NCBI GenBank assembly: GCA_963720465.1
Contig: OY970393.1
Coordinates: forward strand, 1,984,001-2,048,000
DNA from: Methanobacteriota archaeon
Lineage (GTDB): Archaea; Halobacteriota; Bog-38; Methanoflorentales; Methanoflorentaceae
Length of the DNA: 64,000 bases
Direction of reading: 5' to 3'
The number at the start of each line of letters is the position of its first letter. Position 1 is the first letter of the stretch. The notes beneath the pieces are model-generated. The model was given only the letters and a program-made list of their open reading frames with translations, did no database searches and was not told the origin of the DNA. The translations under genes were made by a program, and so were the position numbers. Below are positions 59,907 to 63,298 of this stretch, in pieces.

Positions 59907-60557
59907 TCAAACTTCCTTTTTAATGGCATCGGGCAAGGTGCTTACGTCGCGCAGCACGAAATCGGGCTGGGCGCGGATCAGCAACTGACGCGTGGCAAAG
60001 CCGCAGAGCACCGCGGCCGTTTTTGTCCCCGCTTTTTTTCCCATAAGGATATCTTCGACCATGTCGCCCACGTAGAGCACCTCTGAGGCGACGACGCGCG
60101 CTTGTTCTATTGCCATACGCAAGGTTTCCGGCGCTGGCTTCCCGTGCTCAAATCCGACATCGTCGCCAAACAACATGGTATCGAAGTACGCCTCGATTCC
60201 TTGTTCAATGACTTCGCTCGTCACGCGCTCGCGAGACCCACCAGAGACGAGGCCAAGCTTCAAATGCCTCTTCTTCAGTTCAAGCAGAGCGTCGGCAGTA
60301 CCGTCGAACAGTACGCATTCCTTGTTGTGTCGCTCGTAGCAGTCCATCCACGCCGCGTCTGCGATTGCCCAGTCGTCTTCGCGTATCCCTAAGTACAAGT
60401 AGTAATCGTGATAGTTGGGACGACTCTCTTGGCGGAACTCTTCGAGGGTTACCTGTTGCAGGCCGAAAGCGTCCATGACGCCTAGATAGCTCTCGTACGT
60501 GGGAATGACCGAATTGTAAAGCGTCCCATCCCAGTCGAACATCACTGCTTTAAGCAC
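59907..60557 (-). CDS. HAD-superfamily phosphatase
   Basis: FDWDGTL, KPAP and YVGDMVED motifs. Confidence 0.92.
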   Translation of the reverse strand: MLKAVMFDWDGTLYNSVIPTYESYLGVMDAFGLQQVTLEEFRQESRPNYHDYYLYLGIREDDWAIADAAWMDCYERHNKECVLFDGTADALLELKKRHLKLGLVSGGSRERVTSEVIEQGIEAYFDTMLFGDDVGFEHGKPAPETLRMAIEQARVVASEVLYVGDMVEDILMGKKAGTKTAAVLCGFATRQLLIRAQPDFVLRDVSTLPDAIKKEV

Positions 60558-60561
60558 GTCC

Positions 60562-61587
60562 CTACTCCCGCGGCAGTTTTTCGCTCACGATGGCATAGCA
60601 TCTCCACAGTTCTTGCTTGTCATACTCAACAAGCCGCTGTTGGGTGAGCTCTGCAATCGTATTGTTCTCGAGAGCGTCATTTATACGCGCTTCTGAAAGG
60701 CGCACCATATGAACGTTGTGTCTTGCGCGCGCTTCAGGAGAGCGCTTGAGCTCGTAGAGCACGTCAAGCGGATTCTTGCTCGAGCACAATTCGCAGGCGC
60801 ACGTCCATTCGCCGAGTTTGTCTGCTCGCACAAGCCTGCCTGAAGCCGTTAAGACAGAGCCATACGCGAGTCCTGCGATAACGGCACTCGAGCCGTCTGC
60901 TGACGTAACGTTAGCGCATGCGAGAAGCTCGAGGGCGTTGAATGAGCTGCCTCCCGAGGCGTGAAATTGCGCGTCTCCAAACTCACTTAAGAGCTGATTG
61001 TATGCGGCGAGCACCTCAAACTGTTTCACGCGATCTTCGGAGCGGAATTTCGCGAGGCGGGAAAACAGTCCAAATCCCGCTGAGAGCTTCGTCAAACCGG
61101 CATTTAAAGCTCTCTCGAATATGTAACGGGCATCGCGGAACGTACCGACCTCAAAGCCAGCGTACAACAAATCAGGTCGTTGAGCGTTCTCCTTTGCCCA
61201 CAAAGCGGCTTCTAGGCTCGTTTCGAGCGCCTTCATACGATCTGCTTTGACGCGCTTCCAGTAGGGCGTTTTGAAATCGCCGTTGACCGGAACGTTGAGT
61301 GTCATCAAACCATCGGTCTGGTCGTTTACCAGCTGTTCCTGCAATAAGAGAACCCGTTCTTTCGTTCGCAGTTCGGGCTTTTTCGAATATGGGGGTGAGA
61401 AAAAGTTGCCACTGTGAATGAAATGGTGGGGGAGGGTTGTTGGATCAGTCGCGTACGCATTTGCGAAGGTCGTGTTATCGAAGGATAACACAACGGGGTC
61501 ATTCAGCCCTCGCAGCGTCGGGACGAACGTGCGGTAGAATTGAAATGCACTGGCAGACATCGTGTCGTTTTTGTGAGAAATAGGCAC
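60562..61587 (-). CDS. Divergent tRNA-guanine transglycosylase-like protein (catalytic domain only)
   Basis: Motif order FANAY, HSGNF, LNVP, FHASG, ADGSS, CACELC, HN matches the arcTGT barrel and Zn site; alternative start at ATG 61560. Confidence 0.8.
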   Translation of the reverse strand: MPISHKNDTMSASAFQFYRTFVPTLRGLNDPVVLSFDNTTFANAYATDPTTLPHHFIHSGNFFSPPYSKKPELRTKERVLLLQEQLVNDQTDGLMTLNVPVNGDFKTPYWKRVKADRMKALETSLEAALWAKENAQRPDLLYAGFEVGTFRDARYIFERALNAGLTKLSAGFGLFSRLAKFRSEDRVKQFEVLAAYNQLLSEFGDAQFHASGGSSFNALELLACANVTSADGSSAVIAGLAYGSVLTASGRLVRADKLGEWTCACELCSSKNPLDVLYELKRSPEARARHNVHMVRLSEARINDALENNTIAELTQQRLVEYDKQELWRCYAIVSEKLPRE

Positions 61588-61653
61588 GCAAGCTTTTTAA
61601 CGCACGGGTATAGCTTATATCTACTTAAATTGATATAAAAATGGTGAGGTTAC

Positions 61654-61881
61654 ATGCCAAATGGACTTATGGATTCGGAGCGAATACGCGAGATTGTGCG
61701 ATCAAGCAAAGACTACCTTCAGATTATTTATCAGAACGACACGAAACTCGTGTTAAAGGTACACAGCGATCCTGCTATTGAAGTCAAAGTTGAAGACGAA
61801 GGAACCACTCTTTCCGTCGACATAGTTGAACCCGAAAGGCTTGGCCAGTTGGTCCAGCAGTTTCGGGATCTGATGTCGTAA
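61654..61881 (+). CDS. Hypothetical protein
   Basis: 75 aa, GAGG RBS, TATA-like box upstream. Confidence 0.6.
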   Translation: MPNGLMDSERIREIVRSSKDYLQIIYQNDTKLVLKVHSDPAIEVKVEDEGTTLSVDIVEPERLGQLVQQFRDLMS

Positions 61882-61903: not shown

Positions 61904-62125
61904 ATGATTGGCAATGCACTTTCCGCGCTGAAGACGTTCGGTGTTGCGGCCCGCGCCCTCGATGAAGAGGGCTTGACCGTCGAAATACGCAACCGGGGCA
62001 AGCCCGCTGTTGCCATTGGGCGAAACGCCCACTCCCTAGTGCTGGACAAGGTCTATGGTCCAATAAAAGTAAAAAGCTTCAAAGAAGTCGTCGAATTAAT
62101 GGGGAAAATCGCCGCCGGAACATAG
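61904..62125 (+). CDS. Hypothetical protein
   Basis: 73-aa ORF co-oriented with the previous gene. Confidence 0.55.
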   Translation: MIGNALSALKTFGVAARALDEEGLTVEIRNRGKPAVAIGRNAHSLVLDKVYGPIKVKSFKEVVELMGKIAAGT

Positions 62126-62430: not shown

Positions 62431-62822
62431 TCACCGGTGAGCTTCGCGCTCTGCGGCGCGTTTATTATGTCTTCGTAGTACCTGATTCTTTCGTCGATCA
62501 CACCTTCGAATTTCCTATACTCGCGTATTACACCAATCCACATGAGCCCGTAGCATAGGGCGATCGAAATAAGAACGGTTCCCCCGGCTAGTATATAGTT
62601 GTCGCCTCGCACGAGAATGGCGTTGCCGTACAAGTATTGAGACGTGAGTACGACGTAAACAGCGAGAAGAATCCCTGCCACCCCACCCCACATCGATTTT
62701 ATGTGCCATATGTGGCGTTCGTGGCGTTTTTCCATTTTTCGAAAATCTAACTCAAGAATTCGGTTGTAGACAGCGCCCTTGTTGACTTCGACGTATTTGT
62801 TTTGTCCGCGCTGCGTGGTCAC
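62427..62822 (-). CDS. Hypothetical membrane protein
   Basis: Two TM segments; start overlaps the upstream gene's stop. Confidence 0.6.
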   Translation of the reverse strand: MTTQRGQNKYVEVNKGAVYNRILELDFRKMEKRHERHIWHIKSMWGGVAGILLAVYVVLTSQYLYGNAILVRGDNYILAGGTVLISIALCYGLMWIGVIREYRKFEGVIDERIRYYEDIINAPQSAKLTGD

Positions 62823-63298
62823 ATTCTCCTTGTTGTGTAATAGAAGCCAACCATAAGCCCAACCGCAATAATGCCGATTATCGCTGCGCCGACAAGTGTA
62901 GGATCAGCGCCGCCTCCCGTTTGATTGGCCGTAGGCGTTGCACTCACCACCGGCGTAGGCGTTGCACTCACCACCGGCGTAGGCGTTGCACTCACCACCG
63001 GCGTAGGCGTTGCACTCACCACCGGCGTAGGCGTTGCGGTTGGCGTAGGCGTCGCGGTTGGCGTAGGCGTTGCGGTTGGCTTAGGCGTTGCGGTTGGCGT
63101 AGGCGTTGCGGTTGGCGTAGGCGTTGCGGTTGGCGTAGGCGTCGCGGTTGGCTTAGGCGTTGCCGCTACTGCACCAGCGGCCTGTTGTGCGTGCAAAGAA
63201 AGCGCCGCTGTCGACGAAGCTACCGCTACAGCAATTAGGAAAGACAGCACTACAACGCGTGAGATGAGAATTCTGGAGCCTCCTGCTTGTAACGACAA
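62819..63298 (-). CDS. Secreted Pro/Thr-repeat protein with C-terminal TM anchor
   Basis: Signal-like N-terminus, (TPTPTA)n and (TPVVSATP)4 repeats, TM helix followed by RR. Confidence 0.8.
   Translation of the reverse strand: MSLQAGGSRILISRVVVLSFLIAVAVASSTAALSLHAQQAAGAVAATPKPTATPTPTATPTPTATPTPTATPKPTATPTPTATPTPTATPTPVVSATPTPVVSATPTPVVSATPTPVVSATPTANQTGGGADPTLVGAAIIGIIAVGLMVGFYYTTRRM
62930..63163. repeat. Coding VNTR: 4 x 24 bp followed by about 7.5 x 18 bp
   Basis: cgtaggcgttgcactcaccaccgg x4, then cgtaggcgttgcggttgg-type units. Confidence 0.95.

Follow-up and report, generated by a model that had tools for sequence, protein, structure and literature searches.

Near the end of a 64,000-nucleotide stretch of archaeal DNA (Methanobacteriota archaeon, GenBank assembly GCA_963720465.1, contig OY970393.1, positions 1,984,001 to 2,048,000; hereafter the window) lie two adjacent genes on the minus strand, one encoding a protein related to the tRNA-guanine transglycosylases (TGTs) and the other a phosphatase of the HAD-IA type. 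The TGT-like protein shares its nucleophile, zinc site, and overall fold with its relatives and carries a His and an Asn at two positions that are Asp in the characterised enzymes, a combination that probably marks a TGT subfamily acting on something other than guanine. Its open reading frame (ORF) occupies 60562-61587(-) and comprises 341 amino acids from a GTG start. The stop codon, TAG at 60564-60562, is separated by 4 nt from the GTG start (60557-60555) of the HAD ORF, which spans 59907-60557(-) and encodes 216 residues. The outer limits of the pair (59907 and 61587), the length of the TGT-like protein, and the 4-bp gap were given in an initial annotation made from the sequence by a model, and all agree with the ORF listing and the sequence. 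Because most homologues are 332 residues long and begin at a Met equivalent to the ATG at 61560, this ATG is likely the true start in preference to GTG 61587, giving a predicted coding sequence at 60562-61560(-) with a 332-residue product in a frame open from the GTG; residue numbers throughout follow the 341-residue frame. A divergent intergenic region recognised by sequence inspection (61579-61653) separates the gene from a 75-residue ORF beginning at 61654. Within it, on the minus strand at 61640-61631, is an A/T-rich TTTTATATCA, which we read as a TATA-like candidate promoter element.

Plain-sequence comparison gives a weak match to TGTs: the Pfam TGT model (PF01702) aligns with the C-terminal 61 residues only, at 13.5 bits against a gathering cut-off of 26.3, a cut-off that is reached by three of the 15 distant relatives scanned (29.4, 26.7, and 32.3 bits). 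A single-sequence phmmer search of the PDB returned the archaeal TGT (arcTGT) structure 1iq8 at E = 0.007. Scores against the equivalog models for the archaeosine TGT TgtA (TIGR00432, 20.3 bits versus a cut-off of 350) and ArcS (NF040592, 17.8 bits versus 440) are far too low for membership in either. With a profile of 46 family sequences, the PDB search recovered arcTGT 1iq8 (E = 6.4e-9), DpdA 7ui4 (E = 7.6e-5), and bacterial TGTs (E of about 0.03), and hhalign matched the family profile to 15 archaeal TgtA sequences from the window's own phylum at 97.8% (E = 9.6e-13) over 244 columns.

In structure, the resemblance to TGTs is far above chance. An AlphaFold2 (AF2) model of the protein has a mean pLDDT of 91.9 and a pTM of 0.91, and the top Foldseek matches to it are all TGTs (1iq8, E = 5e-11, TMq 0.71). 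VIA-align superimposes the model on arcTGT 1j2b with a Z of 27.0 and a root-mean-square deviation of 3.1 over 301 aligned residues of 16-17% identity; bacterial and eukaryotic TGT structures follow at a Z of 24-26. In the arcTGT alignment, model residues 1-332 correspond to residues 13-358 of a 576-residue chain, and no PUA or other C-terminal domain is present. The model thus has the (β/α)8 barrel and C-terminal zinc-binding subdomain that define the TGT superfamily, and the protein is predicted to consist of these two parts and nothing more. That it is a TGT-superfamily paralogue lacking PUA domains had been the starting proposal, and AF2, Foldseek, VIA-align, and hhalign all bear it out. 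PHROGs yielded no meaningful match for the protein, and no longer fused forms of the family (768-2190 residues) appeared at E ≤ 1e-5 in a search that is weak evidence on this point.

The active-site residues were mapped by hhalign with the family profile, by aligning the TgtA of this genome with 1iq8, and by HMMER alignments, and their codons were checked by eye. By hhalign, His58 (CAC, 61414-61416(-)) falls on the Asp that acts as general acid/base in TGTs, equivalent to Asp90 of the genome's own TgtA, Asp95 of the Pyrococcus horikoshii enzyme, and Asp95 of DpdA. Asn98 (AAC, 61294-61296(-)) likewise stands where TGTs have a base-binding Asp (Asp125, Asp130, and Asp130, in the same order). Glu146 (GAG, 61150-61152(-)), a position that varies in the family, is opposite the base-binding Gln166 of TgtA and Gln169 of P. 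horikoshii. Asp231 (GAC, 60895-60897(-)), within the invariant S-x-D-G-S motif, takes the position of the nucleophile (Asp246 in TgtA, Asp249 in P. horikoshii, Asp256 in DpdA). Cys263, Cys265, Cys268, and His290 (CxCxxC-x21-H, 60718-60801(-), with TGC codons at 60801, 60795, and 60786) align with the zinc motif of arcTGT and DpdA and with the zinc ligands of TgtA and P. horikoshii. Also kept in the pocket are Ser59 directly after the first catalytic residue, an aromatic residue for stacking (Phe/Trp62), and a Gly-containing motif in strand 6.

The substitution of His and Asn for two Asp, with the nucleophile and the zinc ligands retained, had been proposed from an alignment made by eye, and the profile alignments agree with it. 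Six of the seven motif pairs on which that proposal was built are reproduced: HMMER against 1iq8 pairs GFEVGT with IQGST, FHASG with VHLFG, ADGSS with FDSAS, CACELC with CSCPVC, and HN with HN, and hhalign against archaeal TgtA additionally pairs FIHSGNF with MTDSGSF and TLNVP with PIDIP. The seventh, FANAY with ITNSY, does not hold; the hhalign alignment begins downstream of it, and AYAT lies opposite residues 82-85 of TgtA, not 55-61.

To judge how unusual this pocket is, we drew on two reports, one on DpdA (PMC10164549) and one, a preprint, on the type IV CBASS protein Cap10 (10.1101/2025.04.06.647259). According to the former, neither TGT nor DpdA varies at any of the three active-site Asp (PMC10164549). 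Those of DpdA are Asp95, which serves as general acid/base and whose replacement in Asp95Ala inactivates the enzyme; Asp130, which together with His181 recognises the Watson-Crick edge; and Asp256, the nucleophile (PMC10164549). Cap10 retains D73, S74, D122, and D248, with Lys154 at the Gln position (10.1101/2025.04.06.647259). The characterised catalytic members covered by these reports (bacterial, archaeal, and eukaryotic TGT, DpdA, and Cap10) share the same three Asp and recognise guanine or 7-deazaguanine (PMC10164549; 10.1101/2025.04.06.647259). Since TGT and DpdA do not vary at the three Asp, which Cap10 keeps as well, the His/Asn pair is a real departure: of the residues that identify a catalytic TGT or DpdA, the nucleophile is present as Asp231, the general acid/base Asp is replaced by His58, and the base-binding Asp is replaced by Asn98. 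The pocket nevertheless keeps the nucleophile, the Ser, the stacker, the strand-6 motif, and the zinc site, and for this reason we read it as a putatively active site that would accommodate a planar base and carry out glycosyl transfer or hydrolysis. A non-guanine substrate, as initially suggested, fits the predicted His/Asn pocket.

The same comparison bears on whether the protein could be an ordinary guanine or 7-deazaguanine transglycosylase, acting on DNA like DpdA or on tRNA like arcTGT, that merely has unusual residues. Its nearest relatives in both sequence and structure are arcTGT and DpdA, its short single-domain format is DpdA-like, and the look-alikes in the atlas, among them viral clusters, are likewise short proteins with a TGT domain, although these are leads only. 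Against this, hhalign shows replacement of the Asp for general acid/base catalysis as well as of the one that reads the Watson-Crick edge; no dpdB/dpdC, preQ0, mobile, or defence genes lie near the gene in the window, and PADLOC has no family matching the TGT-like or the HAD protein; and the same phylum contains a short TGT that has the canonical residues Asp/Asp/Gln/Asp and looks different, with a score of 63 bits and a transposase setting. We consider an ordinary transglycosylase very improbable.

Conservation was assessed in an alignment of 107 sequences, composed of the window protein, 76 proteins from two protein searches, 14 distant genome loci, and 16 loci from related genomes; it includes fragments and some near-duplicates and excludes one unrelated sequence (P0075). 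Among the sequences with a residue at the position in question, His58 is present in 94 of 94, Asn98 in 95 of 96 (the single exception being Ser), and Asp231 in 100 of 100. The zinc ligands, which follow the CxCxxC...H pattern of the TGT superfamily, are nearly as constant (Cys in 96/98, 98/98, and 99/99; His in 96/97). Near-invariant as well are the S/G/N after His58, the H209-x-S-G motif, and S-x-D-G-S, and the active-site set holds among members as low as 24-35% identity. Position 146 is different: Glu occurs in 86, Gln in 13, and Pro in 2 of 101 sequences, and its equivalent is His in DpdA (PMC10164549) and Lys in Cap10 (10.1101/2025.04.06.647259). The initial annotation had envisaged a reciprocal exchange of Asp for Asn and Gln for Glu; the second half of this exchange is not a property of the family, which is defined by the His/Asn pair only. 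The His/Asn/Asp set is therefore a fixed, selected feature of the active site, and Glu146 is not. Full-text literature searches, which did not extend to supplements, turned up no TGT-superfamily clade with His and Asn at these positions; the supplementary alignments S5 and S7 of PMC10164549, for example, may contain sequences of this kind.

Random variation at these sites, which would be expected of a decaying enzyme, is not what the alignment reveals for His and Asn. The ratio of nonsynonymous to synonymous substitution rates (dN/dS) of the TGT-like gene, calculated in comparisons with five relatives, is 0.16-0.23 (the two most distant pairs were saturated), compared with 0.10-0.15 for the neighbouring HAD gene and 0.05-0.10 for Hsp20. 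Because His, Asn, and Asp are conserved and dN/dS lies in this range, we regard the gene as a selected variant and reject a decaying pseudogene.

A paralogue can be selected without being an enzyme, and the protein might instead be a binding or regulatory subunit, similar in idea to eukaryotic QTRT2, in which fold and zinc were kept and guanine chemistry was lost. Such a role would be compatible with the absence of two of the three Asp published as invariant and essential (PMC10164549) and with a dN/dS somewhat above those of HAD and Hsp20. However, the nucleophile in S-x-D-G-S is present in every sequence that covers it, His and Asn are invariant rather than drifting, and one would not expect identical polar residues to become fixed in an inactive pocket across Halobacteriota-type archaea, Asgard archaea, and Thermoprotei. 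Moreover, most genomes with a tgtA have no member of the family (a His/Asn-type member occurs in 0 of 277 other genomes of a phylum sample, and a match in 4 of 251 of an Asgard sample), and thus the family is not a general partner of TgtA. We regard the non-catalytic alternative as improbable.

The genome of the window also has a canonical tgtA (568.8 bits), which the initial annotation had named as something to look for; it lies ~13 kb beyond the end of the window. It stands side by side, on the same strand, with an ArcS-like ORF of 563 residues (G000:C1:2059796-2062222, ~12-14 kb past the window end), a pairing that recurs in related genomes, and tgtA was found in all 23 genomes of the window's taxonomic family. 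The TGT-like gene is additional to the canonical tgtA/arcS pathway.

The family to which the gene belongs is small. An exhaustive scan of 1.84 billion protein representatives returned 24 clusters at E ≤ 0.001, 19 at E ≤ 1e-10, and five at E ≤ 1e-30, and a word-indexed protein search returned 56 proteins, named at source either "hypothetical protein" or "queuine/archaeosine tRNA-ribosyltransferase". Within the window's taxonomic family, the gene is present in 20 of 23 other genomes; the three that lack it are 61%, 67%, and 86% complete. A sample of 300 genomes of the phylum contained no other family with a true member, and the His/Asn type occurred in none of 277 other genomes. Distant His/Asn members are found in metagenome-assembled genomes (MAGs) assigned to Promethearchaeia/Promethearchaeota, Helarchaeota, Bathyarchaeota, Thermoprotei/Thermoproteales, and Nitrososphaerota, and additionally at 21 metagenome loci; when 250 genomes were sampled from the phylum to which one Promethearchaeial genome belongs, 4 of 251 had a match. 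The family is therefore small and patchy, comprising one euryarchaeal family plus some Asgard, Bathyarchaeota, and Thermoprotei MAGs.

Two genomes of one other family in the phylum score just 63 bits with the family profile. The 63-bit ORF carries the canonical VDSGGFQ, LDLP, LQGN, and FDSS set and is surrounded by transposases. A 345-residue short TGT without PUA (L075:5010-6047(-) in genome G102; also G198 and L076), with canonical Asp/Asp/Gln/Asp and the zinc motif, adjoins a 279-residue ORF amid transposase-like ORFs and an Orc1/Cdc6-like gene, in another family of the same phylum. It looks like an archaeal DpdA-type or mobile TGT; the 63-bit ORF is a short TGT of the DpdA-like or arcTGT-like kind, distinct from the His/Asn family. 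A further contig (L033), labelled as the bacterium Candidatus Deferrimicrobium, carries genes for a ValRS-type synthetase, Tsr3, the TGT-like protein, and a partner protein that are 56-79% identical to those of Helarchaeota (L028 and L032); this contig is probably archaeal and mis-binned.

The gene downstream of the TGT-like gene, at 59907-60557(-), encodes a protein with the features of a HAD-IA phosphatase: it matches Pfam HAD_2 at 117.6 bits versus a threshold of 23.8 and has motif I (FDWDGTL) at residues 7-13. It reaches no NCBIfam equivalog cut-off (the best being PpaX, 104 versus 218 bits), and among solved structures it is closest to entries for generic HAD proteins, pyrophosphatases, and phosphoglycolate phosphatases. 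HAD directly follows the TGT-like gene in all 17 related genomes examined (19 loci). The whole block, wHTH-CDC48-Hsp20-HAD-TGT-like followed by the 75- and 73-residue ORFs and membrane ORFs, is collinear in these relatives, and therefore the HAD adjacency alone carries little information. The setting in the window is a housekeeping one, with CDC48, Hsp20, glutamine synthetase, NrpR, and small ORFs. Two of the latter, at 61654-61881(+) and 61904-62125(+), are divergent from the TGT-like gene, encode proteins of 75 and 73 residues that belong to no family and are 47-97% identical across both genera, and lie under the deepest of the mapped RNA-library contigs. Farther along, at 62819-63298(-), a 159-residue ORF without a Pfam match, whose position is conserved in relatives, has long Thr/Pro/Ala repeats (TPTPTATP..., then PTPVVSAT four times) and a hydrophobic stretch at its C terminus, and resembles a linker protein anchored at the surface.

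RNA libraries give some indication of how the pair is expressed. Eighteen runs from peat, wetland, soil, and bioreactor samples contain 20-34% of the sampled words, and we mapped contigs from four metatranscriptome runs of four studies. In all four, a contig 2-3% divergent from the window extends from Hsp20 through HAD and across the 4-nt junction into the TGT-like gene. Adapter read-through accompanies the contig ends at 61545, 61559, and 61578, positions 61579-61654 are uncovered by contigs in the four mapped runs, and coverage returns at 61655-61740; the gap at the intergenic region is a weak hint of transcript ends. From these contigs, which could derive from DNA, we infer that the TGT-like gene is co-transcribed with the HAD-IA phosphatase gene in the window's lineage.

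Neighbours of distant family members were scanned using 42 proteins chosen from 84 neighbouring ORFs (99 with 15 TGT-like ones) at E ≤ 1e-4, with a laxer scan of 13 ORFs at E ≤ 1, 11 of them re-scans; at the metagenome loci, 22 of 77 ORFs were scanned, near-duplicate loci being left out of the rescan. Lokiarchaeial loci have a divergent RuBisCO-like protein whose best match is an MtnW-type enolase (358 bits, below the 409 cut-off). This protein has 440 residues (L024:4586-5908(-) and L027:4586-5908(-)), and MtnW-type denotes a 2,3-diketo-5-methylthiopentyl-1-phosphate enolase. At Helarchaeota-type loci, a divergent Tsr3 is accompanied by a conserved gene of 190-250 residues directly downstream of the TGT-like gene, at times overlapping its stop. 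Copies of this partner (L028:7034-7660, L029:6987-7748, L032:1289-1855, L033:6918-7652, L082:4238-4912, and L084-L086) are 35-86% identical; it matches nothing in Pfam or NCBIfam, a search of the window's genome revealed no homologue, and AF2 modelled it poorly (pLDDT 66.5, with the other four models at 41-46). Bathyarchaeota-type loci have a divergent SCP2 protein and a convergent gene for a 1300-1545-residue protein, and at Thermoprotei-type loci a NUDIX gene immediately precedes the TGT-like gene on the same strand (L037, identical with L092, and L094). One locus (L089) has a divergent HAD that is not orthologous to that of the window (BLASTP E = 0.011). The conserved HAD-coupled system first envisaged is thus not borne out: HAD accompanies the TGT-like gene in one syntenic lineage and, as an unrelated divergent protein, at L089. 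The TGT-like/HAD pairing is a lineage-specific operon and not a defining part of the system.

Nonetheless, two independent HAD adjacencies together with NUDIX are a modest hint, noticed after the fact, of phosphorylated small substrates. They bring into consideration a small-molecule N-glycosidase or phosphorylase whose substrate would be a free nucleoside (for instance of the adenine type), nucleotide, or related ribosyl compound and which would operate in salvage or house-cleaning together with phosphate-removing enzymes like HAD. Phosphohydrolase neighbours recur in separate lineages (HAD in the related genomes, the L089 HAD, and NUDIX at L037/L092 and L094), and at the Lokiarchaeial loci the divergently placed neighbour is the MtnW-like protein. 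With five HAD_2 matches in the window's genome, two independent HAD adjacencies are unlikely by chance, although this is a rough post hoc estimate, and the protein has no PUA or other nucleic-acid-binding domain. On the other hand, the characterised catalytic members of the superfamily described in the two reports act on a polymer (tRNA or DNA) or bind a protein-linked base (PMC10164549; 10.1101/2025.04.06.647259). The family is mostly basic, most distant loci are without such a neighbour (Helarchaeota having the partner and Tsr3, Bathyarchaeota SCP2 and the giant protein), the two HADs are not orthologous, and the lineage counts are small and were picked after looking. We judge a small-molecule enzyme rather unlikely.

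The reading we prefer, to which we give about an even chance, is that the protein is a functional member of a small, undescribed TGT subfamily, a PUA-less zinc barrel with N-glycosidic chemistry on a non-guanine base, perhaps in a nucleic acid. It builds on the fold, residue mapping, conservation, selection, distribution, gene order, and RNA-library presence described above, and takes catalysis, residue roles, and substrate class by homology. In the proposed mechanism, Asp231 would attack C1' of a ribose or deoxyribose to form a covalent glycosyl-enzyme, as in TGT and DpdA, with His58 assuming the general acid/base role of the lost Asp. Asn98, Glu/Gln146, Ser59, and the stacking Phe/Trp62 would hold a planar base that is neither guanine nor 7-deazaguanine, Asn98 replacing the carboxylate that binds guanine N1-H/N2-H2. 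The intermediate would then be resolved by water, resulting in base excision, or by another base, resulting in exchange. A nucleic-acid substrate is slightly favoured over a free nucleotide because the family is mostly basic, with a median isoelectric point (pI) of 9.06 for 87 full-length members versus 4.5-7.6 for the first 350 residues of 15 TgtA proteins of the phylum.

Several observations weigh against this proposal. The protein encoded in the window lacks this basic character (pI 7.18), and the Lys/Arg that follows the nucleophile in arcTGT and DpdA is absent from the family motif DGS(T/S)xVxxxLAYG, which weakens the case for a nucleic-acid substrate; the HAD, NUDIX, and RuBisCO-like neighbours in other lineages hint instead at small phosphorylated substrates. 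The placement of His58 and Asn98 around a ligand is predicted from alignment. In one related genome (G021:C77:11587-12565), the TGT-like gene contains an in-frame TAA and its match is split, which reflects either a damaged gene or an error made in sequencing or assembly. Finally, RNA libraries may contain DNA, and a contig over two genes does not prove one transcript.

A bolder form of the proposal, which we put forward tentatively as possible but doubtful, is a new TGT-superfamily class whose members would remove a base other than guanine from archaeal RNA or DNA or swap it for another. If true, there would be a second, unrecognised base-replacement chemistry beside queuosine, archaeosine, and dPreQ0, in Asgard archaea, Bathyarchaeota, Thermoprotei, and one peat-dwelling euryarchaeal family. 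The retention of fold, zinc site, and nucleophile together with a fixed His and Asn makes the family a tangible candidate for a new kind of glycosidic chemistry, with nucleic acids or nucleotides as substrates, in lineages as distant as Asgard archaea and a peat euryarchaeon. As a rule for annotation, the source name "queuine/archaeosine tRNA-ribosyltransferase" is probably wrong for family members.

Among known systems, the bacterial and eukaryotic TGTs (Zymomonas mobilis TGT and QTRT1) have the same fold and zinc motif (profile E = 0.03) but are more distant than arcTGT; they have the canonical set at the four active-site positions, Asp102, Asp156, Gln203, and Asp280 in the Z. mobilis numbering, and specificity for preQ1 or queuine. 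The archaeal enzyme arcTGT/TgtA (P. horikoshii 1iq8 and 1j2b) shares with the family the barrel and zinc subdomain, the nucleophile Asp, the Ser next to the first catalytic residue, the aromatic stacker, the H-x-x-G motif in strand 6, and CxCxxC...H. In contrast, the family has His for Asp95, Asn for Asp130, and Glu or Gln at Gln169, and is without the C1, C2, and PUA domains (332 residues versus 478-582). DpdA (S. Montevideo 7ui4) resembles the family in being a single-domain TGT fold without PUA, as reflected in the profile match, and in its TSIDSTTP sequence at the nucleophile, which is similar to the family's TSxDGSTP. Unlike the family, DpdA retains Asp95, Asp130, and Asp256, with His181 at the Gln position (PMC10164549), and has a long insertion before the zinc motif and the partners DpdB and DpdC in a defence island, none of which are seen here. 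By the catalytic residues that define them, the family falls outside TGT, DpdA, Cap10, TgtA, and ArcS. Cap10 keeps the Asp pair, has no zinc site, and adjoins a CD-NTase and Cap9 (10.1101/2025.04.06.647259), whereas the window family keeps the zinc site, has the Asp pair replaced, and has neither CD-NTase nor Cap9 neighbours nor a PADLOC match. The likeness lies in Cap10 being a TGT-fold protein repurposed away from tRNA, which shows that the TGT fold is able to change its class of substrate (10.1101/2025.04.06.647259).

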